From the NCBI GenBank assembly GCA_007133925.1, contig SLLU01000038.1, forward strand, positions 1-42,314: a DNA stretch of 42,314 bases, written 5' to 3'. How positions within the stretch are numbered: the stretch's first letter is position 1; each line of letters opens with the position of its first letter. The position numbers and the translations under genes are program-made. Positions 5,394 to 41,731 of this stretch are shown piece by piece. The notes under the pieces were generated by a model. It ran no database searches and had not been told where the DNA came from. It saw only the letters and a list, made by a program, of their open reading frames with translations. This DNA comes from Candidatus Halarchaeoplasma halalkaliphilum. GTDB taxonomy: Archaea; Thermoplasmatota; Thermoplasmata; Halarchaeoplasmatales; Halarchaeoplasmataceae.

Positions 5394-7253
5394 TTATTTG
5401 CGGTTCCCGGGTCTCTTTCGATAGTACCCGTCGTAGAACGAGGGGGGATCGTATCTACCCCAGCGCCTGTACCAGTGTATGAACCATGCTATGAGGATAG
5501 AACTTACTATGAGTGTGGGAAGAACAAAACAGTACACCACGGAATAGCTGGTTGTGGGCATGGCACTTACGTCCTGGGTACTAGCCCCTTCGCCAGCCGG
5601 GTTCACCGCGCTCACACTGTAGTAATAGGTTACCCGATTCGTAACGTTTTTGTCTTCGTATTCGGGTGTATGAGAAGAAACGATAGCTACGAGTACGCTC
5701 TCGTTCCCCTTTTCTCTACGATAAACGAAATATTCGTCCAAGTCCACACCTCCCAAATACTCCGGGGGTTCCCAGACCAGACGAACCATTGAATCACCGG
5801 GGTGGGATTCCAATCCCCTTGGTTCCCCGGGCACAACAGCTGCCGTGGCATTGACAATCTCGGACATCAAACCTTCCCCGCCGTAATTTATGGCGCTGAC
5901 CATGTAGTTGTAAGTCTCACCTATGGTAACTTCATCGTCAATATAGGACGACCTATCGGGGATCCAGGTATGCCTGGTGATGTTATCCTGAGGAGTCCAA
6001 CGATAGATCCAATAACCCTGTATCTCACCTCCGCCTACGTCAAGGGGATGCTCCCAGTTCAACAACAACCGACCGTCATCGACACTAATGGTGAGATCAC
6101 GGGGGGCCGAAGGCACGCCGATGAAAGCAAATAACATACCCCTTGTGGATGCCATGAATACAGTGCCGTGACAGCCTATGGCCGGAGAGGACACTACCGT
6201 GCCACCCATATCCGTTCTCCATTTTTCCGTACCATCGCTGTTGACTGCATAGGCAAAACCATCGTGGGAACCAAAATATACGGTACCATCTGCCCCCAAT
6301 GCCGGTGAAGCTTCAACGGGCCCACCGGTTGAAAACTTCCATATCAGTTCACCCCGCTCATCCACGGCATATAGATGTCCGTCATCGGAACCGAAGTAAA
6401 CCACTTCATCCTTACCAACAGAAGGGGATGACCTGATAGGACCATCTGTGGTGAAGTGCCAAAGGTAACCGCCCCGGAGATTCAAGGCATAGATCTTGTG
6501 GTCGGAGGAACCGAAATATATGGTACCGTTGGGGCTCACCGCGGGGGACGAATGGATCTCTCCACCGGTTTCGAATCTCCACCGTAGGGATCCTCCAGAC
6601 CCACTCAGGGCTAAAAGATCACCCCCGGAGGTGCCGATGTAAACTGTCCCGTCTACCCCTATTGCAGGTGAGGAGGTTATAGGGCTGTTGGTAGGATGAC
6701 TCCACCTTTCTGTACCGTCCGGATTGACTGCATACACATGGCCATCCCGGGATCCCACGTAAACAACACCGTCGGCGGATATGCCGGGAGATGACGTTAC
6801 GGCACCCCGGGTCTCGAATTCCCATAATTTTCGACCTCCGGAATCCAGGGCATACAGATTACGATCATTAGATCCAAAGTAAACATTACCATGGGGATCC
6901 AACGCAGGGCTTGATACCACTGTACCCCCGGTTTCGAAACTCCATCGGTTAACGAAATTTGTGTCGTAATCGAAGGCGTGAAGGTAACCGTCATCCGAGC
7001 CTATGAAAACCCTGGAATCGGCAGATACCGCCGGAGAAGACAAGAAAGGATGTGTGTGCCCCCAGCTGCGGTGATTCCTACCGTCCACTTGCCCTGTAAA
7101 GCGTGTACTCAAACCAGTATTCCCCGGGTTTCCGCCGAAACCCGGCCAAGGATGGTCCGGTACATCGGGTTCTTCGGAGGTCACCATGTGTGTGGAAAAC
7201 ACGGACATGGACACCAGCAAGCCCGCCACTAACAAGATTCGGAGTGCATTCAC
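5394..7253 (-). CDS. Secreted or anchored PQQ-like beta-propeller repeat protein with two FN3-like domains and a C-terminal TM anchor
   Basis: N-terminal signal-like hydrophobic segment. About 8 repeats of the ...G.VY.GS.DG.LYA.. / SSPA.. blade pattern. Two roughly 90-aa Ig/FN3-like segments (APRDL..W.P; PGEPRGL..LVWEPP). C-terminal TM helix followed by a basic tail. Confidence 0.75.
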   Translation of the reverse strand: MNALRILLVAGLLVSMSVFSTHMVTSEEPDVPDHPWPGFGGNPGNTGLSTRFTGQVDGRNHRSWGHTHPFLSSPAVSADSRVFIGSDDGYLHAFDYDTNFVNRWSFETGGTVVSSPALDPHGNVYFGSNDRNLYALDSGGRKLWEFETRGAVTSSPGISADGVVYVGSRDGHVYAVNPDGTERWSHPTNSPITSSPAIGVDGTVYIGTSGGDLLALSGSGGSLRWRFETGGEIHSSPAVSPNGTIYFGSSDHKIYALNLRGGYLWHFTTDGPIRSSPSVGKDEVVYFGSDDGHLYAVDERGELIWKFSTGGPVEASPALGADGTVYFGSHDGFAYAVNSDGTEKWRTDMGGTVVSSPAIGCHGTVFMASTRGMLFAFIGVPSAPRDLTISVDDGRLLLNWEHPLDVGGGEIQGYWIYRWTPQDNITRHTWIPDRSSYIDDEVTIGETYNYMVSAINYGGEGLMSEIVNATAAVVPGEPRGLESHPGDSMVRLVWEPPEYLGGVDLDEYFVYRREKGNESVLVAIVSSHTPEYEDKNVTNRVTYYYSVSAVNPAGEGASTQDVSAMPTTSYSVVYCFVLPTLIVSSILIAWFIHWYRRWGRYDPPSFYDGYYRKRPGNRK

Positions 7254-7403: not shown

Positions 7404-8594
7404 ATGAAATGCAACGGTAGTGGAAAGGGGTTGCCCGAACTAGTGGGACCCGCCGCCTTTGGGATAAAGATGGGGGTCATCCTCCCCGGGATCCCCGTGG
7501 ATGAGATGATAATCGAAAGGATGAGTGAACTCAACGGAGAGGGGCTAGTGGATAATGGGGACATACTGTGCATAACCGAATCCGTTGTTGCCCGATCCCA
7601 GAATAATTTCATAACCCTGGACATGGTGGCCCAGGAGGTAGGGGAGAAGCTGGGGCTACAAAAGGATGGTTCCTTGGGAGTGGTATTCCCCATACTGAGC
7701 AGGAACCGCTTTTCTCCCATCCTAAGAGGCCTTTCCAGAGCGGTCAACAGTGGAAAAGTAACGGTTCAACTATCATTTCCCACAGACGAGGTGGGGAATC
7801 CGATACTGGATGATGAGATACTAAAGGAACTAGGGAAAGGTAGGGTGGATACCATCACCATGGCCGACCTTCAAGGATTCGATTACAAGCATCCCCTGAC
7901 CGGTGTTAACTACATAGAGTTTTACCAGGAGTTGATCACCGGCGAAGGGGCGGAGGCTGAGATCATCCTCTCCAACGATCCCCTTGAGATATTGAAGTAC
8001 GAACCAGAGGGTGTGATAGCTGCGGACATACACACTTGTGAGTCCACACTGAGTTCACTGAGGGAGAAATTCTCCAACTGCATTTCATTAAAAGACCTTT
8101 GCTGCAAGGGAGAAAAATGTTCCGAATGGGGTCTCTTAGGTAGCAACCTATCCAGTGGGGACAAGTTGAAACTCCTTCCCAGGGATGGAGACTCTTTCGT
8201 TGAACGCCTCCGGAAGGATATAGAGAATGCCACGGGGAAAAATATACACGTGATGATCTACGGAGACGGGGCATACAAAGATCCGGAATCCGGCATATAC
8301 GAACTCGCGGACCCCAAGACTACTTTCGGAGCCACCAAGGAACTCACCGACCGATACCGAGACGGTATCAAATACAAGTTCGTCGCGGACTCCCTTAGCG
8401 AAGAGGGAAAAAGTGCGGAAGATATAGAACGGGCCATGGAACGGGTAAAAAAGAAAGGTGGGGAAAGAAACTGCATGGAAACCGAAGGTACCACTCCCAG
8501 GCAACTTACTGACATACTGGCCAGCCTCGCTGACCTTGTCAGCGGTTCCTCTGATGCAGGAACACCTGTAGTGCTGGTCAAGAACTTCTTCTGA
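7404..8594 (+). CDS. CofE-like (F420-0:gamma-glutamyl ligase family, COG1478-like) protein with a large insertion; function uncertain
   Basis: N-terminal GDILCITESVVARSQ and C-terminal ILASLADLVSGSSDAGTPVVLVKN resemble the conserved ends of the CofE family. The central part was not recognised. Confidence 0.45.
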   Translation: MKCNGSGKGLPELVGPAAFGIKMGVILPGIPVDEMIIERMSELNGEGLVDNGDILCITESVVARSQNNFITLDMVAQEVGEKLGLQKDGSLGVVFPILSRNRFSPILRGLSRAVNSGKVTVQLSFPTDEVGNPILDDEILKELGKGRVDTITMADLQGFDYKHPLTGVNYIEFYQELITGEGAEAEIILSNDPLEILKYEPEGVIAADIHTCESTLSSLREKFSNCISLKDLCCKGEKCSEWGLLGSNLSSGDKLKLLPRDGDSFVERLRKDIENATGKNIHVMIYGDGAYKDPESGIYELADPKTTFGATKELTDRYRDGIKYKFVADSLSEEGKSAEDIERAMERVKKKGGERNCMETEGTTPRQLTDILASLADLVSGSSDAGTPVVLVKNFF

Positions 8595-25188: not shown

Positions 25189-28100
25189 TCACTCCAGGGG
25201 GATCTTCCTAGCGGAATTGTATGGTGAATCGATGTGGCACGCCCACGAGGTCCTGTTCTTTATATCCGCATCGGTTACCAGGTGCACATCCAATAACTGG
25301 TCCACATGTTGTCCCGTCCGGTGCATGTTCTCTTGTTCGAAGACCCTGCCCTTTTTGTCCAACCAGTCCAGCAGGGCCTCCTTGCGTTCCCGGTCATCGT
25401 CTATGTGTATGATCAAATCGATATCACTGCGGGGACCTGCGGTGGCCTCCTTTGTGCTCCCGATGACATACAGACCTTTGACCTTGAAAAAATCTGCATC
25501 CATTTCCCTGGCCAACTCTTTTACCTTTTCCATGCGCCATGCCCAGTGATCCGGGGGTTTCAGGTAAGCCATGGCTTGATTGGAATCCCCATCCATCACC
25601 ACCTCCAGAGTACCATCCTTGATGAGATCGGTGACCCTCAACACCCTAACCACATCCTCCATGTGCTTCCAGTCCGGCAGCAGTTCTTCCAGTCGGTTCG
25701 GAGATGCTAATAAGATATCCTCATTGTAAACGTTATCTTCCTCATGGGGATACAGAGGCAGATAGTTTATTTCGGCCTCAACAAGATCTTGGAAAAAGTG
25801 GGTTCCGAAAGACAGTTCGGGTAGGTAATCCCCTTTCTCCATGCCCACCTCTATGAGCATGGAGGTATTGTTGATATCTCTGTAATTAACGGGCACCCCC
25901 AACTTTATATCGCCCCTGCTACCCCACCTTCCCGGGCCCATCAATATGAATCTTCTTCGAGGTAAAAGGGAGTTCAGGTCGCTCACCACTCTGGCCACGG
26001 ACCTCATATCCTCAACACTTTCCAACTCCTCGTATGTTTCCGGGACCACATAAACTATGTACTCTATGTTCTCCACAAAACCGGTGGTCACATACTTATT
26101 GGCCGAGAATAATTTTCTTTTATCGGGTACGTCCTTGGGTATGGGCCTTCTCTCGGTCTCCCGGGATTGGCTTTGGGGGCGGCATTGAAGAAGATAAAGG
26201 CGCTCTCCATCGGAGGCGAATTCCACGTCCACGGGAGTGTCCATCTTCTGCTCCAGCAAGTTCATTATCTGGCGCATGGTATCCAGGAACCTTTTGTCTT
26301 TCAGTAGTCCTGAAAATGTTATGATACAATCTTCCTTGGAAAGGTCGGATAATGGTGAAGGGAGTTTCAACTGTTCCCCATCAAAAACGGATATCATCTT
26401 GTTTATCAGAGGAAATTCATCACCGTAGGTCTCGATCATTTGGCTCACCTTCACGGTTTCTATGATACCCCGATCCAGATTGATCACGTCCATGTATCTT
26501 TGGGAATACCTTATCCTCTCATCCAGCAAGGTGTTCACTCTCAACTCAGGCCTGTTGGGAGATATAAGCATGGGATAATCGTCTCCAACCCTATCCACCG
26601 CTCGGGTTCCCAGTCCCGCCACCAACCGTATAATCCCATCCCGTCTCCTGATACGGGGTGACCATCTGAACTCGTTCCTGCTGAAACCCACACCACCGTA
26701 TGCGGGAAAATAGTATGGCCCTATCTGTTTTCCCACTACCTCTTGTACCAGGATACCCATCTCCTCGTTGACGTCCAGCAAACCTCGTTCACGCCGGTAC
26801 TCGATGGGATCGGAACCCATGGTCGAAGCGTAAACCTCGGCTATGGCATTCATCAGTGCGTTCAGCCTTTCCTCATCACTACCGGTATTTGCAAGGAAAA
26901 GGCTTTTGTACTTTCCGGAAAAGGCCGCCCCGAAACTGTCCTCCAGGAGACTTGAGGAACGAACGATTATGGGTTTGCCCTTGGTATCCGCAAGTATCCT
27001 ACGAAGACCTTCGACTATCTCTGCAGTGAATACGGAATTCTTGAATATCTGCTCAAGGAACGGTTGTTCCTGCCGGATCTCCTCCGGTTCCAGATACTTG
27101 ATGTGTATCACCTCATCCAGGTCGTTGTACTGTATGATATCCATCATGGTATCCGAGGTTATGTACCAACTTTTTGGGAATGACACAAAATCCAACAGTT
27201 CCTTTTTCTCGCTTTCGATTATCTTCCTGGCAAGAAATATCCCCGAGGACTTACCACCCAGCTTCCCTGCACCCTGGGCCGGACCCACTATGTGGGTCAG
27301 AAGAGGAAGGAAATCCTCCACGGTTATGTACTTCTTTGAGATATTGATGAACTCCAATCTATCGGTGAAGAACCTCTTTGTGAGAGAGGTGCAAATACTC
27401 ATGCGGTCCTCAGGTGCGAGAACCCCCTGGTCACCGGTTGTCTCGAAGAAACGGTTAAGCTCATCGGTTATCTCCACCAAAGGTATCCCCACCCTCTGAG
27501 ATGATAGGAGTAAAGGGCGAGCCTTGTCTTCCCTCAACCAGCGATGAAAAAGATTCGAGAGTTCGTCGGGAGGTATATACTCCCGGGCCATGTCGAAAAC
27601 ATTCTGCTGGACCATCTTCAGGGACTCCATGTCCTGTCGGGGGTTGGGCATGTTTATACCGCACCATTGGGATTCTCCGGGTGAACTTGGGATCGTGCAT
27701 ACCTTGCTGAGAAGCGCATCTATTTTTTTGTTATGGGTTCTGTAGAGATGATAGACCATCCTTCGTGTCAGTCTCAACATGGTCCTGGGATCAGTCTTCA
27801 TGAGGAGATCGATTATCACCTCCCAATCTTGTTTCCCACCCAGACCGTCGGGGGAACGGGTTTCCCCGGAGATACCACCGTTACGCTGGATCCTCAATTC
27901 CTCCCTTACATTCTTCTCTTCGATGAACTTGCTCAGCAATTCGGCTATGGCATTCAAAAGGCGTTTTTCATCCTTAAGGAAAGGACCTAGGTCTGCCGGA
28001 GGTCTATCTTCAAGATAGCCTACCTCAACCCGGCCTAAGATCTCATCGGACAGAACGATATCGGATCCCAGTGTCCAGGGTGTTTCTTTGTGATTTTCAC

Positions 28101-28329
28101 TGGAGAATTCTTGGCCGTTGATCACTATTCTGGCATAGGCCACATCGTCGTGTTTCATGGCCGGTGGTAACAGTTCTATTATATCTTCCAGAGCCTTTTC
28201 AAGAGATATGTGATTATTCTTGACTATCCCGGATATCCCGTATAGACAGTTGAGCTCCTTCACCCTCTCTTTCAGTTCCTCCTCCCGATTCCTGGGTGTT
28301 CTTTCCGGTTCAGATCCATCTTGGCTCAT
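25189..28329 (-). CDS. Multidomain protein: N-terminal GAF-like sensor module, PPDK_N-type (PEP/pyruvate-binding) ATP-grasp, GPGRWG/GTHFF module, C-terminal Pol-beta-type nucleotidyltransferase
   Basis: ELNCLYGIS sensor-type motif. ATP-grasp motifs GAGKLGGKSSG, IIVRSSSLLEDSFGAAFSGKY, MGILVQEVV, VDVEFA, LLQCRP. Then ILMGPGRWGS...FGTHFFQDL. Then an NTase signature GSTKEATAGPRSDIDLIIH. The ATG at 28329 is preceded by GGAG; an alternative GTG at 28365 abuts the upstream stop. Confidence 0.8.
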   Translation of the reverse strand: MSQDGSEPERTPRNREEELKERVKELNCLYGISGIVKNNHISLEKALEDIIELLPPAMKHDDVAYARIVINGQEFSSENHKETPWTLGSDIVLSDEILGRVEVGYLEDRPPADLGPFLKDEKRLLNAIAELLSKFIEEKNVREELRIQRNGGISGETRSPDGLGGKQDWEVIIDLLMKTDPRTMLRLTRRMVYHLYRTHNKKIDALLSKVCTIPSSPGESQWCGINMPNPRQDMESLKMVQQNVFDMAREYIPPDELSNLFHRWLREDKARPLLLSSQRVGIPLVEITDELNRFFETTGDQGVLAPEDRMSICTSLTKRFFTDRLEFINISKKYITVEDFLPLLTHIVGPAQGAGKLGGKSSGIFLARKIIESEKKELLDFVSFPKSWYITSDTMMDIIQYNDLDEVIHIKYLEPEEIRQEQPFLEQIFKNSVFTAEIVEGLRRILADTKGKPIIVRSSSLLEDSFGAAFSGKYKSLFLANTGSDEERLNALMNAIAEVYASTMGSDPIEYRRERGLLDVNEEMGILVQEVVGKQIGPYYFPAYGGVGFSRNEFRWSPRIRRRDGIIRLVAGLGTRAVDRVGDDYPMLISPNRPELRVNTLLDERIRYSQRYMDVINLDRGIIETVKVSQMIETYGDEFPLINKMISVFDGEQLKLPSPLSDLSKEDCIITFSGLLKDKRFLDTMRQIMNLLEQKMDTPVDVEFASDGERLYLLQCRPQSQSRETERRPIPKDVPDKRKLFSANKYVTTGFVENIEYIVYVVPETYEELESVEDMRSVARVVSDLNSLLPRRRFILMGPGRWGSRGDIKLGVPVNYRDINNTSMLIEVGMEKGDYLPELSFGTHFFQDLVEAEINYLPLYPHEEDNVYNEDILLASPNRLEELLPDWKHMEDVVRVLRVTDLIKDGTLEVVMDGDSNQAMAYLKPPDHWAWRMEKVKELAREMDADFFKVKGLYVIGSTKEATAGPRSDIDLIIHIDDDRERKEALLDWLDKKGRVFEQENMHRTGQHVDQLLDVHLVTDADIKNRTSWACHIDSPYNSARKIPLE

Positions 28330-28365
28330 GGTCGATCTCCAGTGTATGGGTCCATAGTCCGCCAC

Positions 28366-31308
28366 CTACCTATTTTTAGTTTTCCCCTTTATTACGATCC
28401 CCTTCCCTTCCCGGCCATCAAGCCTCAGTTCAAGGGGTGTTCGGGTGGTTACATGTCTGGTGAACTCTCCCTCCTCCACTATATCCTGTTCACCAAGCCA
28501 TTGAAGATCCACCTTGGTCCCCTTCTCATCCACTATGAGATAACCTGTTTCGGAAGATACCAGGTCATGGAAGAAATGGGATCCCTGGGACGGTTCTATG
28601 TGTCTTCCTCCCATCTCGGTCTCCACTATGGCAAGGGCACCAGCTATGTCACCCCAACGTATCGGGATACCCATCCAGTGGTCCGAAGAGCCCCATCGCC
28701 CAGGGCCTATCAACAGATATTTTCGATCTCGCTTCATGAGTTTACGGTTCAATGTACTCACCTCACGGGCGATCCTTTGACTCTCTTTCGCAGCGAAGGA
28801 GTCCTCCTTGACATAGACCACATCCCGTATATCCTCCATCAAACCGTTCCCAAGGGAATTATTGCTGTACAGGAGTACATCCATTTCTTCATAGGCCCCT
28901 ATATCCACACAGGCTTCAACTTTCCGGGATACCATGCTTCTCATCTGGAGTATGTACATGGTCGCTTCCCGGCACTTATCATCCTCGAACTCCACGGTGA
29001 ATTCTATCTCCACAGGGTATCCGAGGGCCATCTTGGCCACCTTCAGAACCAGTCCTAAGCCTTTGGCCAGTGGTATGATACCCGGGGAGAGGAGTGGTGA
29101 AAAATCCAGTACCCTCGTACCCTCGTATGCGGTTCCGGGATACAGACGACCATCCTGGTAAGTAGATGCAATGCAGCGAAGCAAGCCTTGTTTTTCAGCC
29201 TCTTCCAGGTCCAGTCGAACCAAGGAGGTTTCTTCATCCATATCGAGCATCCTGTAGATCGACCTGAGGTTCAAACCGAAGAAATGTCTCTGGGAATGTT
29301 TCACCCGATCTTCGATGTCGGGAACCATGGGTCTCCTGGGATGCTCGGGACAGAAACAGTGGGACCGGCCTCCTTCAACAATGTTCTTTCCCAGCCCCAG
29401 GGCAAGATAGGCAACACCGCACTCGGGGACGCAACCGCCAGAGGGATAATGATTGTAGGAACGGGCAACACCGGATATTGAGGGATAAAAGTACTTCCCT
29501 CTTTTCTTCCCGGTGACTTCCTGAAGGATAACCGCCATCTTCTCATCGTTCAGATTCTTGGGTGTGGATCGGAGGTAGTTCCTGGCAGCTTCGAAGTAAG
29601 TGGAGGCAAAAACATATTTTATTGCATTGCAAACGTCCTGGAATCGGAAGTCCGTATCCCAGGATTCGTTGGGGAGCAGCATGGAAGCATACACCCCAGC
29701 GAAGGGTTGGGAAAGTGAATCTTCCAGAACTCCGGAAGATCTTACTATCAATGGTTTCTTGGTGTTCCTAACGAAGGAGCGTATATCACCCAGCACCGTG
29801 GGGGGAAGGCTCGATTCTATGAACTTAGCCGCGATCCTTTCGTCGGGAAGGTTGATCAGTTCTTCTATATCCAAAGAATTTTGTTTCAAGAACTTCTCGA
29901 ATACTTCCGTTGAAAGCACTATTGTCCTGGGTACAGTTATGTTCAATCCGCGGAGCATCTCTGGGCCCATGTGCCGGGATAACAATTTTGACATGAACAC
30001 CAGGCCCCGTGCCTTGCCTCCTAGGGCACCGGTACCGATCCTGCTGAGCCGTACATGGGGTCCGAAGCTCTCCCTGTGGAACTCCAGTATGGAATTTTTG
30101 TATACCCTGTACCTGTGGGCTTCCAGGAGCCTTTTCATGTCGTCCTGAAACGATCCTCTCTTACCGGTACGTAGTTCTTCAAAGGATCGAGCCAGTTCGT
30201 TCTCTCCCCGGGCTATGCACCACTTAGACAGATCTTCCGATTTCAACATCTGTTCTGTTGCCGCTTCTTGGGACCTCCCAACCGCCCTGTCAAGGTCTGT
30301 TAGGCAGCGAATGGTTACAGACTTCCCGTCACCCGTATCCCATGAGAGCTCTGTGGGTCCCAGGACCTCACTTAAAAACCTCTTCAACTCCCATTCAAGA
30401 CGGGAAGAGCTCTTGTGGAAAAAACCGATGTCCTCCGGCACCTCCTCGAGAACATCGGAAGACTGTATCATGACCGGGATATCAAAACGCTTCTTTATAT
30501 CCATGACAAGGTGGAGACCGGAATATTGACCCTCCTGATCAGAAAGGTCGCTGATAACACCTGCAAGGTTTTTGCCGTATCTTTCAACACAGAGTTCACC
30601 CTGGGTAAAATCCCCTGCCATGAGAAGCCTGGGTCTCCTGAGATGTCTGGTGATGACCTGATCCTCCGTGAGGTCCTCATCGAGTATGTTCTCAAGATGA
30701 TCTCGTATCTCGTCATATATGAGATGTACGTAGGTGGAATAGTGCTGCACTGAATCCTCGATCAGCAGTATGATCCTGCCCTCGGACTTGACATCCGGGT
30801 TGTTCTCCAACTGGATACGATCTTCTATGTACTGGAGTATATCCAGAAATATCTTCCCGTCACCGTTCCATGTGAACACGTGGTCAATGTCGTTTTCATT
30901 CACAAGTCCTTTCACATCGTTACCAACCACCGCCACCAGAAGTTTCGGGTCAAAGGACTTTACACGGCTGGCGAGTTCAACCACCCCCATATCAGACGGT
31001 TCCTTGAATATGATAACCAGATCAACGTTGTTCTTCTCGATGTACTCCAAGCCTTCCATGCCAGATCCCTTGTGGGTGAACACCGGAGGCGGCCTGCCGG
31101 GTATCGTGGGGTAATGATCTCTGAACAATCCGTTGAGCCGCCCGCCTTCTTCCACAAGGAAAAAATCGTATGTCGGAGACACCATCAGGACGTTTCCTAT
31201 CGAATGGCTGTGTAGTTTTTCACACCGGCCGTCGGTGTCCCCGATATTGGGACGTATGCCTGTTACCTTTCTAACGATCTCATCTATCTCCGAATCTCTG
31301 CAGCTCAT
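28366..31308 (-). CDS. Multidomain protein: pseudo-receiver, receiver (REC), PPDK_N-type ATP-grasp, GPGRWG/GSHFF module
   Basis: The REC-like domain (aa ~177-300) has IILLIEDS, VISDLS (putative phospho-Asp), IPVMIQSS and FFHKS. The preceding domain (aa ~38-165) has VLMVSPTYDFFLVEEGG but F-K at the acceptor position. ATP-grasp motifs GALGGKARG, LIVRSSGVLEDSLSQPFAGVY, MAVILQEV, VEIEF, ILQMRS. Then LLIGPGRWGSS...QGSHFFHDL. Confidence 0.8.
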   Translation of the reverse strand: MSCRDSEIDEIVRKVTGIRPNIGDTDGRCEKLHSHSIGNVLMVSPTYDFFLVEEGGRLNGLFRDHYPTIPGRPPPVFTHKGSGMEGLEYIEKNNVDLVIIFKEPSDMGVVELASRVKSFDPKLLVAVVGNDVKGLVNENDIDHVFTWNGDGKIFLDILQYIEDRIQLENNPDVKSEGRIILLIEDSVQHYSTYVHLIYDEIRDHLENILDEDLTEDQVITRHLRRPRLLMAGDFTQGELCVERYGKNLAGVISDLSDQEGQYSGLHLVMDIKKRFDIPVMIQSSDVLEEVPEDIGFFHKSSSRLEWELKRFLSEVLGPTELSWDTGDGKSVTIRCLTDLDRAVGRSQEAATEQMLKSEDLSKWCIARGENELARSFEELRTGKRGSFQDDMKRLLEAHRYRVYKNSILEFHRESFGPHVRLSRIGTGALGGKARGLVFMSKLLSRHMGPEMLRGLNITVPRTIVLSTEVFEKFLKQNSLDIEELINLPDERIAAKFIESSLPPTVLGDIRSFVRNTKKPLIVRSSGVLEDSLSQPFAGVYASMLLPNESWDTDFRFQDVCNAIKYVFASTYFEAARNYLRSTPKNLNDEKMAVILQEVTGKKRGKYFYPSISGVARSYNHYPSGGCVPECGVAYLALGLGKNIVEGGRSHCFCPEHPRRPMVPDIEDRVKHSQRHFFGLNLRSIYRMLDMDEETSLVRLDLEEAEKQGLLRCIASTYQDGRLYPGTAYEGTRVLDFSPLLSPGIIPLAKGLGLVLKVAKMALGYPVEIEFTVEFEDDKCREATMYILQMRSMVSRKVEACVDIGAYEEMDVLLYSNNSLGNGLMEDIRDVVYVKEDSFAAKESQRIAREVSTLNRKLMKRDRKYLLIGPGRWGSSDHWMGIPIRWGDIAGALAIVETEMGGRHIEPSQGSHFFHDLVSSETGYLIVDEKGTKVDLQWLGEQDIVEEGEFTRHVTTRTPLELRLDGREGKGIVIKGKTKNR

Positions 31309-31325
31309 CTGTACCTACTTCTTGT

Positions 31326-32612
31326 TCATATCCAGCCCCTCAATCTGCAGGCCTCAGCCACACTGTTGATGGATATCATGTAGGCTGCATCCTTGAGGGT
31401 TATATTCTTTCTCTTGGAGAGTTCCATGACCTTGTAGAAGGCGGAAGTCATCTTGTCATCCAGCTTACCAAGTACCTCTTCCTTTGGCCAGTAGTAATTC
31501 TGATTGTTCTGCACCTGTTCGAAGTAGCTGCAGGTGACACCGCCGGCATTGGCAAGGAAATCCGGTATGACCATGATTCCTTTCTCTTCCAGTACCGTAT
31601 CCGCCTCGGGAGTGATGGGTCCGTTGGCCCCGGCTCCGATGAGTTTTACACTGGGCCGTATATGATTTACTGTATCTTTGTTTATGGCATTCTCCAAAGC
31701 AGCGGGGATCAATATGTCCACATCCTTTTTCAACCAATCCTCTCCCGGAAGCCTCTCGTAACCCAGTACTTCAGCTTTTTCCTTATCCACCGTACCGTAC
31801 CTGTTGGTTATACCCCTTAATTCCTCAAGGTCGATACCACTTTCTTTGTAGTATGTGTATGCCGTTGAATCTTCCTGATCCCAACATGAAACCAACAGCA
31901 CTTTGCCTCCGTATTCCGTGAATAGTTCGATGGCATACTGTGCAACGTTTCCGAAACCCTGAACCGCAGCTGTGGTTTCGGATATATCCATTTTCAACTC
32001 CTTGAGTGCTTCTCTTATGGTGAACACAACACCGTATCCCGTTGCCTCGGTACGACCCAGGGAACCACCATGGCCCACGGGCTTCCCTGTGATAACACCG
32101 GGATACTTTCCTCCCGCGATATGCTCGTATTCGTCCATCATCCAAAGCATGTGTTGTGCACTGGTCATCACGTCGGGTGCGGGGACATCATTCACGGGCC
32201 CGATATTCTTTGCCAATTGTCTAACCCAGCCCCTGCAGAGCCTTTCCTGTTCCCTATCGGACAGGTCATGGGGATCGCATATAACTCCACCTTTTCCTCC
32301 ACCCAGGGGGATATCGGCAACGGCACATTTCCACGTCATCCACATGGCTAAAGCCCTTACCGTATCCGCAGTTTCCTGAGGATGGAACCTTATGCCCCCT
32401 TTGCAGGGTCCCCTTGCATCGTTGTGCTGTACTCGGAAACCCCTGAAAACCTTGACAGTACCGTCGTCCATTTTTACAGGTATGCTGAAGTGATACTCCC
32501 TTAAGGGCACTCTTAAAAATTCCCTGGTAGATTCGTCAAGTCCTAGCTTATCGGCAACAGTGTCAAATTGTTCCTGTGCCATCTTGTATGCGTTGAAGCC
32601 TTTTTCTGCCAT
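31326..32612 (-). CDS. gdh: Glutamate dehydrogenase, about 428-aa type
   Basis: KGGIRFHP; active site PLGGGKGGV; Rossmann motif QGFGNVAQ. The ATG at 32612 (MAEKGFNAY) is preceded by AGAGGT. The ORF track extends to 32702 through an implausible N-terminus. Confidence 0.93.
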   Translation of the reverse strand: MAEKGFNAYKMAQEQFDTVADKLGLDESTREFLRVPLREYHFSIPVKMDDGTVKVFRGFRVQHNDARGPCKGGIRFHPQETADTVRALAMWMTWKCAVADIPLGGGKGGVICDPHDLSDREQERLCRGWVRQLAKNIGPVNDVPAPDVMTSAQHMLWMMDEYEHIAGGKYPGVITGKPVGHGGSLGRTEATGYGVVFTIREALKELKMDISETTAAVQGFGNVAQYAIELFTEYGGKVLLVSCWDQEDSTAYTYYKESGIDLEELRGITNRYGTVDKEKAEVLGYERLPGEDWLKKDVDILIPAALENAINKDTVNHIRPSVKLIGAGANGPITPEADTVLEEKGIMVIPDFLANAGGVTCSYFEQVQNNQNYYWPKEEVLGKLDDKMTSAFYKVMELSKRKNITLKDAAYMISINSVAEACRLRGWI

Positions 32613-32655: not shown

Positions 32656-32672
32656 CTGATATAAATAATCCG
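32656..32672 (-). promoter_or_regulatory. TATA-like element (GATTATTTATATC on the minus strand) for the gdh cluster
   Basis: Lies about 50 nt upstream of the gdh ATG at 32612. Confidence 0.35.
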
Positions 32673-32751: not shown

Positions 32752-33792
32752 TCAGTCACCACTGCACGCCCTCAACCGCCCTTCTATCATACCTATGGAT
32801 ACCTTCTGGGGCATTATGTTGTGAATCATCTTGGATGACAGTATTGTATTGGATAAGGCACCTATGCTGTTGGGGAACGTGTCGTACAGATTCTCACCCC
32901 ACTGAAAGAAATCCTCTATGGTCTTGAATGCGGTGAATACGAGGAAATTGTATCTGCCCGTGCTGGCCACCAGGGCCCGGGAAACCTTGTTATCCTTTAT
33001 CATCAGGTCCATGAACTCCTTTCGCTTGGATTTCACCTCGATCTTGGAAACCACCATGTTGTATCCGGGAGGTATGAACAAGTTGGGAAAGGTACATCGT
33101 GGATAACCGATGATCCCAGCATCCAACATGGTCTCGATGTGCCGCCCCACTGTCTTCCTGTTGGAAACTAGTTTCCGTGCCAGTAGGGATTCGTTTGTCC
33201 GTATGCACTCTCCCTCCATGAGTATCTTTAGTAGTTCGAACTCAACTTCATCCAGTGTTACATCGTTCAAGACAATCTTACCCTTGGATCGGAATTCCTC
33301 CGCCAATACCTTCACAAAACAGTTTGGATCGTACTTGAATGTGAGTCTATTGCTGAATATATACGCATTAGCCGGTGCCCTCCATTCCCTGGCAGGTATC
33401 CTCTTCTCTCGAACGATCTTCTCCCTCCACGAGTGATATGTTTCCAGATCCTTGAAGAATTCTATGAGAAGTGTGTTGTAGGGGCCTTCCATACATGAAA
33501 AAGCTGCGAATATGTGGGAATCCTCCCTGTAAAAGGAAGTCATCTCTTCCCCCCTGGGCATGTCCGCCTCGACTATTACGAGTAGGGGAAACTCTTGGAA
33601 TAGAGCGTCGAAGGGATATATGGGAGGCCTCACCAGATCGTTCTCGTAGAGATAATCCACCTTCTTTTTGGCTGTGGCCCTGTGTATATCGAGTCGCCTT
33701 GCCAGATGACTGATGTTAACGTTAACCCCCTCTCCGGAAACCAGATATCGTAGTAGCCTGAGGTTCAATTCGTCCTTTAACGGGTCGTTCAT
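32752..33792 (-). CDS. Transcriptional regulator with two tandem Lrp/AsnC-like modules (wHTH plus alpha/beta domain, twice)
   Basis: Two HTH segments (NISHLARRLDIHRATAKKKVDYLYENDLV; NESLLARKLVSNRKTVGRHIETMLDAGII). Each is followed by a roughly 100-aa segment with alternating beta/alpha character. The family assignment rests on pattern only. Confidence 0.5.
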   Translation of the reverse strand: MNDPLKDELNLRLLRYLVSGEGVNVNISHLARRLDIHRATAKKKVDYLYENDLVRPPIYPFDALFQEFPLLVIVEADMPRGEEMTSFYREDSHIFAAFSCMEGPYNTLLIEFFKDLETYHSWREKIVREKRIPAREWRAPANAYIFSNRLTFKYDPNCFVKVLAEEFRSKGKIVLNDVTLDEVEFELLKILMEGECIRTNESLLARKLVSNRKTVGRHIETMLDAGIIGYPRCTFPNLFIPPGYNMVVSKIEVKSKRKEFMDLMIKDNKVSRALVASTGRYNFLVFTAFKTIEDFFQWGENLYDTFPNSIGALSNTILSSKMIHNIMPQKVSIGMIEGRLRACSGD

Positions 33793-33900: not shown

Positions 33901-35370
<1,470 letters not shown>

Positions 35371-38827: not shown

Positions 38828-41731
38828 CTAGGCTGCGATCTCACCGGATCTCATGCCACCCCATAGGGAAGATGGATATCTGCCGTTCTCCCGGTGCATG
38901 GTCTCGAGCATCTCCGTTATACCAGGCAGTTGAGAGAGGTTCCCGTTCCACCCCTCTATCTCATCCCCGTACCTTTCTTCTATGTCCGCCACCAATCGTG
39001 CCATGCTCTCGTCGAGTTTGGAGGGAACCCATCCGGAAACAAAGACCGCAAGGACCACGTTCTCTCCCTTTTGAATGAATACCTTTTTGTCACCGTATTC
39101 CATACTCTTCAGCGTGTTCTTTTCGTCGCCCCCGAAGGCATCGTGGACGTAATTGTTCACCGCCACGAACATGCCGGCCAGTATATCTTCCTTGGAATAG
39201 TTGTTCAACGTACTGGAAGTGTGCTTGATCAATACGCCCGAGTCGTGTATCAGAAAAATGTCTTCCACGGTGAATTTGAATTTTGCAGCGTAGAGTATGG
39301 CACCTAATATACCCAGGGGAATCAATATCAATATCCACGGGAACCCGGTTAAACCAACCGTGGGAGCCAGATCGGACTCCACATGGACCGCTATGATGAC
39401 GAAGGTGGAGGTGAGTTCGTCTTCCAAATTCACCCTGACGTGGTGGGTTCCCGGTTCGCTGTGGCTGAAGAACAGCACATTGTCCCTGATATCCACATTT
39501 GGATCAGTCACGGATATCTTCAAAGACCGTTCTCCCAAACCAGATATGTATAGTCCCAGATCCAGGGACCCCTCACCCCGGCGTATGTTTATATCCTGTG
39601 GTATCCCGGATATCCTTTCGGAGAGGGGGCTGATGACGGAAAACAGTACTCTGCTGGAGTACTTGCCGAAAGTGGCAATGAGCGTGACCTCTCCCTCCAC
39701 ACTTCCCACATGGATGCCGTTGAATCGTTGATACTGTCCGTGTATGAGTTCCGAATCCCCTCCGTGAACTTCCCAGTAGGCATTCAGTACGCCTATGAAG
39801 CCGTGGGTGGAATTGAAGGCGGACAGGTATCCCATCTCCTCCCGACCCGTATGGACGAATCCGCCAGTTAGAGAGCTGCTCCCACCCATCTCCTTTGTGA
39901 TCCTCACGGAGTCGATACCAGGAGTGGTAAAGGTCCAGGGTCCGAAGGTCAGGGGGAATTCCTCGTGGGTGGAAACCGCATACCAACCATACTCTTTACC
40001 AGGGTTCAGATCGTTCCAGTCCATGAAGGCAACCTCTCCACGGGCCACATCTCTTACGGAGCCTATGAGAGAATCATCACGGGCATCGTAAAACCTCACC
40101 TCTGCGGTTTCGACCTCCGTGCAGTAGAAATATACCGAAAGGGTGGTGTCCAAACGGGCTGTGTGTCCCCTTGCAGGATGGATCCCCTTGGACCGAGAAA
40201 TCATCTCACCGAGGACCTCATTTAGATCGAAGGTGACCTCCTGTTTTGCCCCGTGTGCCCTGACGAAATTATGGAAGAACCTCGCGTACCCGATGCCTGT
40301 GGTGAATGTGAGGTTTACAGGATTTGCCCCGGGATACTTACCGTTGTACCGTAGGGTCAATGTGTAGTTTATATCCCCGTGAAAGTCGAAAGACGAGTCA
40401 ACCCTGTTGGGTGGTCCCGGTATCCTCTCGACTAGTACCTCGCTCACCGCCACTCCGTTCTCCTGTATAACCCCCTCGACCGTATTACCCTTTCTCCCAG
40501 CAACTGAGATGGAAAACGTGACCTCATTGCCGGGTTCCCATTCCCTGCCCGTGAAGGCACACATGTGACCGTTCCAATCTCCCACCATGACCCTGCCCCG
40601 TTCATCTATGGCTGGAGAGGAGTAAACCGTGTGACCCATATCATGGGACCATTGCAGGTCACCGTTGACGTCAAGGGCGTAGAAATAATTGTCGTAGGAA
40701 CCGAAGTATACACGACCGTCATTGCTCAATGCCGCGGACGAGCTGATCCGCCCTTCGGTGGAGAATGCCCATAGTACCTCGCCATCCCTTATTGCACGGA
40801 AGGTCCCGTCATGGGAACCTATATAGATGGTACCGTCCTTCCCTATAGCAGGAGACGGGTGTATACGGGACCCCACATGGCAGCTCCATTCCACATCACC
40901 ATCGGGGCGGAGAGCATAAAGATAGCCGTCGTAGGAACCGAAGTAAATGAATCCGTTCTCACATACCGCTGGAGAAGAGTATATCTGACCCCCGGTTTCG
41001 AACCTCCACAGTTCCTCACCGGTATCAACGTCCATGGCGTACAGATTGTGATCTCCGGAACCCACGTAAACCGCACCGTCCGATCCTAACGCAGGGGAGG
41101 ACCAGAGCCAGGAATCCGAAGTGAATACCCACCTCAGTTCCCCTTCACTATCCACTGAATAAAGGTTGCCATCGTAAGACCCCACATAGACGTTCCCTTC
41201 CTCGTCCACAGTGGGTGAAGAGTACACCTCTCCCTCGGTGGTGTACCTCCACTTCAAGCTTCCGTCCGGATTGAGTGCGTAGATATTGTGATCCCCCGAG
41301 CCAAAATAGATGGTCTCTTCACACGAAACCGCAGGGGAGGAAAGGATGTCACCATCCGTGGCGTAGGACCACAGTAGGGTGCCTTCAACAACATCCAATG
41401 CATAGAGATTGTTATCGGGACTTCCAAAGTAGAGCACCCCTTTGGAACCAATGGCAGGTGACGACCAGAGCCAGGAGTCTGTCTCGTAAATCCAGTCGAG
41501 AGTACCGTCAACATGGTCTGAATCATAGGGACTTAAACGTGTGTTCCTCATATCATATCCGAAAGACGGCCATGGTCCGGAAGAAAGGCTATCTATCTCT
41601 TCAACACAAACCGTGATAGGAGTTGGAACCGAAGCTAAAACAGAGCCGAATAGTGGTGCGAGTAGGATGGTTCCCACAGTGAGGAACACCAGATATACTC
41701 CCCTTCTTTGATGCATCGCACTAATAATCAT
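38828..41731 (-). CDS. Surface protein: signal/anchor, PQQ-like beta-propeller, beta-rich middle region, TM helix, conserved roughly 150-aa cytoplasmic module
   Basis: Repeated blade pattern (..G.IYFGS.D..LYAL..DG...W.. / SSPA). The TM helix is FPWILILIPLGILGAILYAA. It is followed by KFKFTVEDIFLIHDSGVLIKH..., which is roughly 60 percent identical (by-eye alignment) to the next gene's C-terminus. Confidence 0.8.
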   Translation of the reverse strand: MIISAMHQRRGVYLVFLTVGTILLAPLFGSVLASVPTPITVCVEEIDSLSSGPWPSFGYDMRNTRLSPYDSDHVDGTLDWIYETDSWLWSSPAIGSKGVLYFGSPDNNLYALDVVEGTLLWSYATDGDILSSPAVSCEETIYFGSGDHNIYALNPDGSLKWRYTTEGEVYSSPTVDEEGNVYVGSYDGNLYSVDSEGELRWVFTSDSWLWSSPALGSDGAVYVGSGDHNLYAMDVDTGEELWRFETGGQIYSSPAVCENGFIYFGSYDGYLYALRPDGDVEWSCHVGSRIHPSPAIGKDGTIYIGSHDGTFRAIRDGEVLWAFSTEGRISSSAALSNDGRVYFGSYDNYFYALDVNGDLQWSHDMGHTVYSSPAIDERGRVMVGDWNGHMCAFTGREWEPGNEVTFSISVAGRKGNTVEGVIQENGVAVSEVLVERIPGPPNRVDSSFDFHGDINYTLTLRYNGKYPGANPVNLTFTTGIGYARFFHNFVRAHGAKQEVTFDLNEVLGEMISRSKGIHPARGHTARLDTTLSVYFYCTEVETAEVRFYDARDDSLIGSVRDVARGEVAFMDWNDLNPGKEYGWYAVSTHEEFPLTFGPWTFTTPGIDSVRITKEMGGSSSLTGGFVHTGREEMGYLSAFNSTHGFIGVLNAYWEVHGGDSELIHGQYQRFNGIHVGSVEGEVTLIATFGKYSSRVLFSVISPLSERISGIPQDINIRRGEGSLDLGLYISGLGERSLKISVTDPNVDIRDNVLFFSHSEPGTHHVRVNLEDELTSTFVIIAVHVESDLAPTVGLTGFPWILILIPLGILGAILYAAKFKFTVEDIFLIHDSGVLIKHTSSTLNNYSKEDILAGMFVAVNNYVHDAFGGDEKNTLKSMEYGDKKVFIQKGENVVLAVFVSGWVPSKLDESMARLVADIEERYGDEIEGWNGNLSQLPGITEMLETMHRENGRYPSSLWGGMRSGEIAA

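Follow-up and report, generated by a model that had tools for sequence, protein, structure and literature searches.

In a 42,314-nucleotide stretch of DNA from the archaeon Candidatus Halarchaeoplasma halalkaliphilum (assembly GCA_007133925.1, contig SLLU01000038.1; the whole stretch is called the window here), a gene for glutamate dehydrogenase (GDH) is followed by two genes encoding large proteins, P2 and P1, that combine signal-input domains with an ATP-grasp domain of the type found at the N-terminus of phosphoenolpyruvate (PEP) synthase and pyruvate, phosphate dikinase (PPDK). Both proteins belong to families whose active-site residues are conserved and whose genes are linked to GDH genes across archaea and bacteria. 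These sequences lead us to propose, with a confidence that falls a little short of even, that gdh-P2-P1 is a conserved operon dedicated to GDH, and that P1 and P2 would form a signal-gated, ATP-dependent pair that switches GDH by covalent modification.

The cluster consists of three minus-strand open reading frames (ORFs) that run in the same direction and fill positions 25189-32612 of the window:

31326..32612, minus strand: GDH1 gene (gdh), 428 amino acids (aa), TGA stop; Pfam domains ELFV_dehydrog_N and ELFV_dehydrog
28366..31308, minus strand: P2, 980 aa; pseudo-receiver, receiver, linker, PPDK_N ATP-grasp domain, C-terminal module
25189..28329, minus strand: P1, 1046 aa; GAF-like domain, helical domain, PPDK_N ATP-grasp domain, C-terminal module, Pol-beta nucleotidyltransferase (NTase)

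Only 17 nt separate gdh from P2, which starts at the ATG at 31308, with AGGT just 5' of it, and ends with the TAG at 28368-28366. P1 has two candidate starts, a GTG at 28365 directly after that stop and a GGAG-preceded ATG at 28329. We prefer the ATG, which leaves a gap of 36 nt, because the N-termini of orthologues and independent public gene calls (428, 980 and 1046 aa) agree with it. A first-pass annotation of this DNA, made from its letters alone, had described three co-directional genes with minimal gaps, and on re-reading every coordinate and junction was the same.

The gene arrangement recurs across archaea and bacteria

Three Thermoplasmatota contigs whose P1 proteins are ~58-60% identical to that of the window all carry the order gdh-P2-P1, usually together with a convergent metallophosphoesterase (Metallophos) gene, a gene for a 346-aa helix-turn-helix (HTH) protein upstream, and a second gdh nearby. 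For a wider view, the N-terminal region of P1 was scanned against one genome per species, which yielded at least 600 pattern-matched stretches, at least 321 of them encoding a relative. The locus counts given here refer to the best 80 of these at least 321 relatives, with the window proteins searched against all ORFs of those loci. A complete GDH1-type gene adjoins P1 in 67 of the 80 (62 directly upstream on the same strand, 5 divergent), and in two more it is truncated by a contig edge. In nine of the 11 others, the contig breaks off no more than about 0.5 kb upstream of P1 or its core partner. The 80 loci span the Thermoplasmatota and at least 14 bacterial phyla, including Planctomycetota, Chloroflexota, Calditrichota, Acidobacteriota, Bacteroidota/Ignavibacteria, Krumholzibacteriota, Myxococcota, Gemmatimonadota, Spirochaetota, Bacillota, Pseudomonadota, Cloacimonadota and others. 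An arrangement that recurs in so many phyla is hardly a product of chance.

What lies between GDH1 and P1 varies. Archaeal loci have a P2 that bears receiver (REC) domains, about 40 bacterial loci have a short protein of ~580-650 aa made up of the ATP-grasp domain and the module that follows it (the core type), and about 20 have nothing. An orthologue of the Metallophos gene comes right after P1 in 37 of the 80 loci.

P2 shows a GDH linkage of its own. In several bacterial loci a GDH2-type gene, resembling the second gdh of the window, is followed directly by a REC-bearing P2-type gene. A metagenome scan for P2-type genes gave 63 informative instances, and the gene directly upstream on the same strand was of GDH2 type in 30, of GDH1 type in 6 and of neither type in 27. 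Among 32 P2 loci without GDH, no alternative recurrent partner was found, the largest neighbour family being present in 5. Six metagenome contigs carry tandem GDH2-P2-GDH2-P2 arrays (L100, L107, L108, L135, L155 and L167); in L135 and L167 a GDH1-type gene comes next, and sometimes the series GDH1-core-P1 follows. Finally, three natural fusions of 1523-1654 aa (P0361, P0362 and P0363) join a P2-type core without receivers to a full-length P1, so that each contains two PPDK_N domains and two modules. These fusions support joint action of the two proteins. The first-pass annotation had guessed at a signal-controlled system tied to GDH. The tie is strengthened by these data, given that the gene order is not unique to one genome and that fusions exist; the control of GDH itself is taken up below.

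P1 and P2 share an apparently catalytic ATP-grasp core

The domains of the two proteins are distributed as follows:

27880..28296, minus strand: P1 GAF-like sensor domain, residues ~12-150, including ELNCLYGIS
27295..27828, minus strand: P1 all-helical domain, residues ~168-345, highly conserved (for example CGINMPNP)
26128..27264, minus strand: P1 PPDK_N ATP-grasp domain, residues 356-734
25555..26124, minus strand: P1 C-terminal module, residues 736-925; invariant His844, codon 25798-25800
25192..25554, minus strand: P1 Pol-beta-type NTase, residues 926-1046; G957-S958, D969-x-D971, D1014
30814..31197, minus strand: P2 REC1-like domain, residues ~38-165; Phe (F101) at the phospho-acceptor position
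30409..30777, minus strand: P2 REC2, residues ~178-300; E184/D185, D254, S283/S284, K299
28927..30027, minus strand: P2 PPDK_N ATP-grasp domain, residues 428-794
28429..28911, minus strand: P2 C-terminal module, residues ~800-960; invariant His911, codon 28576-28578

The ATP-grasp motifs that had been noticed by eye in both large proteins correspond to clear Pfam matches to PPDK_N (PF01326), with E 6.6e-53 in P1, where they cover positions 3-324 of the 328-position profile, and E 1.1e-32 in P2. The two proteins are paralogous over ~590 residues (28% identity, E 1e-44), and the similarity continues past the ATP-grasp domain into the C-terminal stretch. The signature positions of the family (in P1 numbering K360, R457-S458-S459, E463-D464, Q529, D/E701, E703, Q715 and R717) are kept at 93-100% of occupied positions in P1-type, P2-type and short core-type sequences. 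By this measure no paralogue class resembles a pseudo-enzyme, and the ATP-grasp domain is apparently catalytic.

Are P1 and P2 simply divergent PEP synthases or PPDKs, encoded near gdh to serve gluconeogenesis from amino acids? The PPDK_N domain and the names given to homologues by JGI and NCBI would fit such an assignment. Yet neither the PEP-utilizer swivel (PF00391) nor the TIM barrel (PF02896) is matched in P1 or P2 even at E<=0.1, as the first-pass annotation had also concluded, and the complete PEP synthase or PPDK that would have overturned its reading did not appear. Nor was the canonical GG.TSH motif found in the proteins of the window and the fetched loci. Scores against the NCBIfam equivalog models for PEP synthase and PPDK are 13-54 bits, against cut-offs of 456-1063, and sensor and NTase domains are foreign to these enzymes. 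We reject this explanation, to which we attach practically no probability. The public names 'pyruvate, water dikinase' and 'pyruvate, phosphate dikinase' carried by the P1 homologues P0036, P0049, P0068, P0094, P0096 and P0115 are likely mis-annotations, because the swivel and TIM-barrel domains are absent. Such names can distort metabolic reconstructions, in particular gluconeogenesis calls, of sediment Thermoplasmatota and many uncultured bacteria. For the window proteins, a look-up of cluster-member names returned none. Two other PPDK_N families are remote in score as well: RIF_Ptrans_rph gives 28.6 bits against a cut-off of 999 and PigC 29-41 bits against 1300, the NCBIfam cut-offs reaching 1350.

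A new conserved domain follows the ATP-grasp domain

In both proteins the ATP-grasp domain is followed by a conserved module of ~160-190 aa with the pattern G-x-G-R-W-G ... E ... S-x-G-x-H-F-F. Its conservation was counted over 633 non-identical copies drawn from proteins of P1 type, P2 type and short core type. Ten residues (P1 numbering: G800, R801, G803, G811, E827, S840, G842, H844, F845 and F846) are invariant at 100%, and W802, D807 and Y856 are conserved at 97-99%. An exhaustive HMMER search recovered 1993 clusters (50% identity) with the module, 1448 of them at E<=1e-10; its place, with few exceptions, is the C-terminus of a PPDK_N protein. The AlphaFold model is a confident alpha/beta domain (predicted local distance difference test score (pLDDT) 94, predicted template-modelling score (pTM) 0.91), in which a strand leads into the G-x-G-R-W-G loop and the invariant histidine occupies the N-terminal end of a helix.

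The module is a new conserved domain, with neither a Pfam entry nor a match in the Protein Data Bank (PDB). No Pfam or NCBIfam model corresponds to it, or to P1 or P2 as a whole. A profile search of PDB sequences returned nothing relevant, including no PEP synthase, PPDK or enzyme I (EI) chain, and a Foldseek search of PDB folds gave no match at E<=1e-3 (best E 0.04, TM score <=0.37). The weak Foldseek neighbours are CD38, LD-carboxypeptidase/MccF and TIM, all at TM <=0.37.

Because the module occupies the same position after the ATP-grasp domain as does the phospho-histidine swivel domain in dikinases, its relation to that domain matters. We saw a loose likeness in motif order between its ILxGPGRWG, S.G.HFF and v.DG..G elements and the PF00391 consensus, but all tests of homology failed. 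Twenty-two isolated modules gave no match to PF00391 at E<=10. With hhalign, the module scored a probability of 0.1-0.7% against E. coli PpsA and PtsI, and a 625-sequence module profile scored 0.4% against a PpsA-type swivel profile of 16 sequences built from viral-contig homologues. The first-pass annotation had likened the pair to rifampin phosphotransferase, whose architecture is a PPDK_N ATP-grasp domain plus swivel histidine without a TIM barrel. This comparison does not hold as one of family membership: Pfam, PDB sequence search, Foldseek and hhalign found no swivel histidine, and a different module with an invariant histidine stands in its place. That histidine may be catalytic.

Sensor and nucleotidyltransferase domains

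The N-terminus of P1 appears from its predicted structure to have a GAF fold. Pfam gives no GAF match in P1, so the GAF-like module suggested on first reading was sought in an AlphaFold model of residues 1-355, which has a mean pLDDT of 84 and exceeds 90 over residues 20-140. Residues ~12-150 match the GAF domains of NlhH, NifA, PtsP and CodY with a Foldseek probability of 1.0 and TM scores to target of 0.48-0.60. Whole-query Foldseek E-values are just ~1e-2, and the superposition on 4g3k has a root-mean-square deviation of 3.3 A over 161 columns. The all-helical domain that follows (residues 168-345) matched no known relative and no Pfam or NCBIfam model.

In P2, the sequences indicate two receiver-like domains. 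The first-pass annotation had recognized a receiver in P2. In the window protein itself PF00072 is unmatched at E<=0.1, but it is matched in 32 of 46 orthologues (best E 5e-8), mostly in the REC1 region and, in P0198, in the REC2 region. When CheY is aligned with REC1 by hhalign, D57 falls on F101, and REC1 is classed as a pseudo-receiver because this phenylalanine occupies the phospho-acceptor position. REC2 by its sequence keeps the full phospho-acceptor set: E184/D185, D254, S283/S284 and K299 are invariant in the 46 orthologues, and hhalign places the VISD(57) of CheY on VISD(254) and VTA on QSS, an alignment that is statistically weak (E 0.06). The linker at ~354-420 has weak Pfam DUF5752 matches in 9 of the 46 orthologues (for example P0148, P0198 and P0229), at E 1e-3 to 1e-2 and below cut-off.

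P1 ends in what its sequence indicates is a minimal-type nucleotidyltransferase of the Pol-beta superfamily with an intact catalytic motif. The NTase named on first reading is matched by Pfam NTP_transf_2 (PF01909) at residues 938-995, with 26.1 bits against a cut-off of 21 bits. Across 20 diverse orthologues G957-S958, D969, D971 and D1014 do not vary, and among solved structures the minimal NTases 2rff and 1wot, together with URT1, KNTase and MntA, come nearest. In one locus (L130, 2710-7523) a 312-aa protein consists of the GAF-like and NTase parts of P1 alone and is followed by a Metallophos gene and then a P2-type gene; the GAF-NTase unit can therefore exist apart from the ATP-grasp core.

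NTases of this kind also occur in MNT-HEPN pairs, which raises the idea that the cluster is a mobile defence or toxin-antitoxin-like element lying next to gdh by coincidence. The NTase does have weak matches to the MntA antitoxin and to PADLOC PDC-S09 models; these cover the generic NTase core alone, and the cluster includes neither HEPN nor any other defence partner. It lies among housekeeping genes (16S rRNA, PolB, RFC, LonB and TYW1), and GDH adjacency is near-universal and so not coincidental. We reject this idea too, as very improbable. A known anti-phage defence system was likewise discarded as a candidate, PADLOC giving just generic NTase, HTH and Metallophos matches at 14-26 bits.

On the whole, then, the earlier reading of the domains was essentially right. 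What it had missed were the shared C-terminal module, the presence of two receiver-like domains, the conserved second gdh, Metallophos and HTH neighbours, and the recurrence across phyla.

Two types of glutamate dehydrogenase

GDH1 is a hexameric, Pyrococcus-type enzyme: it matches PDB 1gtm with E 1e-126 and has GGGKGG and the substrate motifs. Its score on NCBIfam GdhA_Arch, 494 bits, is below the 750-bit cut-off. Cluster-linked GDH1 proteins form a clade of their own with private invariants, among them four cysteines and an insertion relative to Pyrococcus GDH. The cysteines lie in CDPH, LCRG, TCSYFEQ and EAC and the short insertion begins CWDQED, as compared with Pyrococcus/Thermococcus GDH in the window protein and its orthologues from L007-L086. 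Going by these sequences, it is possible that the clade-specific cysteines and insertion are regulatory or modification sites.

The second enzyme, GDH2, is encoded on the other side of P1:

22595..23929, minus strand: GDH2 gene, NADP-specific, E. coli GdhA-type; likely start ATG 23929 (444 aa)

It has both ELFV Pfam domains and scores 763 bits on NCBIfam PRK09414, against a cut-off of 536 bits. The gene has its own TATA-like element upstream.

Cluster-linked bacterial GDH1 proteins are 59-76% identical to the window protein, and P1 proteins 42-64%; the identity matrices of GDH1 and P1 co-vary (r = 0.67; Mantel test, 0 of 2000 permutations). Linkage and co-variation of this kind also fit a stable complex, in which P1 and P2 would bind GDH and tune it allosterically as sensors of ATP or energy charge and of signals, the ATP-grasp domain being a nucleotide-sensing or conformational module. 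GDH-binding regulators occur in other lineages, for example GarA/OdhI and the Thermus GdhA/GdhB/APRTh complex. Two observations speak for covalent chemistry instead. Every paralogue class, over an immense phylogenetic range, retains the ATP-grasp and NTase signatures and the His, Arg, Glu and Asp residues of the module, which argues for catalysis, and if no covalent product were formed a dedicated phosphoesterase would have little evident purpose. Purely non-covalent regulation thus seems improbable to us.

A model for control of glutamate dehydrogenase

The phosphoesterase in question is encoded by the gene that converges on P1:

24376..25182, plus strand: Metallophos gene, calcineurin-like metallophosphoesterase, 268 aa; convergent on P1 with a 6-nt gap; Pfam Metallophos

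A sequence search for solved relatives of this protein found none.

In the model that we favor, GDH would be the substrate of the pair. P1 and P2 would act together, probably as a heteromer, which we propose because some genomes fuse the two. Signals would enter through the GAF-like domain, a putative small-molecule sensor gating P1, and through the phosphorylatable receiver gating P2. The ATP-grasp domain would load a phosphoryl or pyrophosphoryl group onto the module, with the histidine as a possible carrier, and the Pol-beta NTase of P1 would attach a nucleotide, either AMP or UMP, to the target. Removal of the modification would fall to the convergent metallophosphoesterase, a candidate eraser or phosphodiesterase. 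GDH1 would be the partner of P1, and the NADP-type GDH2 the usual partner of P2-type proteins, so that the two arms may set catabolic and anabolic GDH activity reciprocally.

A number of points weigh against this model. Two loci, L014 and L059, have no GDH neighbour despite at least 1.4 kb of upstream DNA, and about 40% of the P2 genes that encode REC domains lack a GDH gene directly upstream. Gene linkage would fit metabolic or allosteric coupling as well as covalent control. The substrate of every characterized PPDK_N enzyme that we know of is a small molecule or a glucan rather than a protein, and MNT-type NTases also modify antibiotics or RNA ends. The module was considered as a divergent phospho-histidine swivel and rejected as such, since Pfam, PDB profile, Foldseek and hhalign results were all negative; a role for its histidine as phospho-carrier is pure inference.

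Several of these points are shared by the account that we take most seriously after our own, which is small-molecule chemistry coupled to GDH. A metabolite at the glutamate/2-oxoglutarate node might be phosphorylated or nucleotidylated, or the NTase might make a second messenger that is sensed by the GAF-like domain and degraded by the metallophosphoesterase, with GDH under allosteric control or simply co-regulated. The characterized PPDK_N enzymes known to us all have non-protein substrates, and NCBIfam matches P1 and P2 best, if weakly, with PEP synthases, PigC/RedH and rifamycin phosphotransferase. Small molecules are common ligands of GAF domains, and those of NifA and CodY are among the structural neighbours of the P1 domain. 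Metallophos enzymes are often phosphodiesterases, and this one has weak NCBIfam matches to YfcE-type phosphodiesterases; the NTase has a weak Pfam match to the class-I adenylate cyclase NTase domain (E 0.029), and L130 encodes GAF and NTase as a separate protein. All of this is set against three features. P1 and P2 have no recognizable small-molecule-binding catalytic domain of the TIM-barrel or rifampin-binding type, their two sensor inputs and writer- and eraser-like genes look regulatory rather than metabolic, and the linkage is specific to two types of GDH, not to other pathway enzymes. We judge small-molecule chemistry to be rather unlikely.

Covalent control of GDH by P1 and P2 can also be put in a stronger form. 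The pair would then be an undescribed, widespread post-translational switch, in which a dikinase-type ATP-grasp enzyme has swapped its swivel and barrel for a His-bearing fold and acts on a protein, with an NTase and an eraser, gating by GAF and REC domains, and reciprocal action on GDH1 and GDH2. That all of these elements hold together is, on balance, doubtful. P1 and P2 are in any case an enzyme system of the PPDK_N family, and should modification of GDH be confirmed, the chance that they are something more distinct is substantial.

GDH stands at the junction of carbon and nitrogen metabolism. For glutamine synthetase a dedicated covalent regulator is established; for GDH we know of none in bacteria or archaea. 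An operon that ties two GDH types to sensor-gated ATP-grasp and NTase enzymes in hundreds of species makes covalent control of GDH directly testable.

Candidate control signals and genomic setting

Two further features lie upstream of gdh:

32658..32665, minus strand: TATA-box-like element TTTATATC, 46-53 nt 5' of the gdh ATG, read from the sequence
32752..33792, minus strand: HTH protein gene, 346 aa, two winged-HTH (MarR/TrmB-like) domains; Pfam HTH_20 and MarR matches

TTTATATC is the only obvious archaeal promoter-like signal for gdh-P2-P1; neither internal gap is long enough to hold one. Its likeness to the archaeal TATA consensus makes it a candidate promoter element of gdh, whose ATG has AGAGGT directly 5' of it. 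A scan for bacterial promoters and terminators gave 20 sites against 13 +/- 4 expected and 8 against 10 +/- 3, with no enrichment, and is not applicable to an archaeon. The HTH gene is also found 5' of GDH1 in nine Thermoplasmatota loci (L001, L003, L007-L009, L011, L015, L090 and L106), and its domains make the protein a candidate transcription regulator of the cluster.

The window is a segment of archaeal chromosome, with genes for 16S rRNA, family-B DNA polymerase (PolB), RFC, LonB, TYW1 and Lhr, and the closest homologues are all from metagenome-assembled genomes of Thermoplasmata/Thermoplasmatota. The archaeal 16S rRNA gene is complete (33901-35370, minus strand; Rfam RF01959, 1496 bits, model positions 1-1478) and sits directly upstream of the HTH-gdh cluster; no 23S gene is present in the window, and public gene callers left a 1.9-kb stretch around the 16S gene empty. 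Two large PQQ-like beta-propeller proteins (5394-7253 and 38828-41731, both minus strand) are probably secreted or exposed at the surface; one of them has fibronectin type III repeats. A 396-aa ORF resembling F420-0:gamma-glutamyl ligase (7404-8594, plus strand) has all 218 Pfam profile positions spread over 375 residues and therefore contains a large insertion or an interrupted domain.

Comparison with known systems

PEP synthase and PPDK share with P1 and P2 an N-terminal ATP-grasp domain of the same family, including the GGK, RSS, ED, Q, (D/E)xE and QxR residues. They differ in that P1 and P2 are without the swivel and the PEP/pyruvate-binding barrel, have gained GAF-like, REC and NTase domains, and carry after the ATP-grasp domain a module that was unrelated in all tests run. 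Rifampin phosphotransferase, PigC/RedH and flavonoid phosphate synthetase come closer, since they too have an ATP-grasp domain of this family and no TIM barrel, and they provide the best, if weak, NCBIfam neighbours (PigC 41 bits, rph 29 bits). These enzymes nevertheless keep the GG.TSH swivel and a small-molecule-binding domain, both of which are absent from P1 and P2.

Phenylphosphate synthase and the acetovanillone kinase AcvAB are split dikinases, in which a PPDK_N protein works with a related, adjacently encoded second protein, and so set a precedent for dikinases made of two proteins. There, however, the partner has a canonical histidine domain and the substrate is phenolic, whereas P1 and P2 each have their own ATP-grasp domain and module.

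We found no description of the architecture of P1 and P2, or of their linkage to GDH, in the searchable literature; the sole precedent met was mammalian SelO, which AMPylates and inactivates Glud1 (PMC12375108). SelO demonstrates that a GDH can be switched off by covalent AMPylation (PMC12375108). It differs in being a pseudokinase-fold AMPylase with no dedicated operon or sensor domains, and it modifies the antenna, a part absent from the hexameric GDHs of prokaryotes.

PtsP (EI-Ntr) resembles P1 in joining an N-terminal GAF domain to a phosphotransfer enzyme of the PEP-utilizer type, in a nitrogen-linked setting, and its GAF domains (3trc and 3ci6) are structural neighbours of the P1 N-terminus. 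In the rest of its make-up it is the opposite of P1: PtsP has a swivel histidine and a TIM barrel and no ATP-grasp domain.

Some Pol-beta NTases are established regulators of nitrogen assimilation. GlnE adenylylates glutamine synthetase (GS) and GlnD is the uridylyltransferase of PII; both act reversibly and respond to 2-oxoglutarate/glutamine status. Domains of the GlnE and GlnD families are absent from the Pfam and NCBIfam matches of the cluster proteins, and the P1 NTase differs in being minimal (MNT/KNTase/URT1-like) and fused to an ATP-grasp domain, its presumed target being GDH and not GS or PII. For an NTase encoded beside GDH, GlnE and GlnD are the closest functional analogy.

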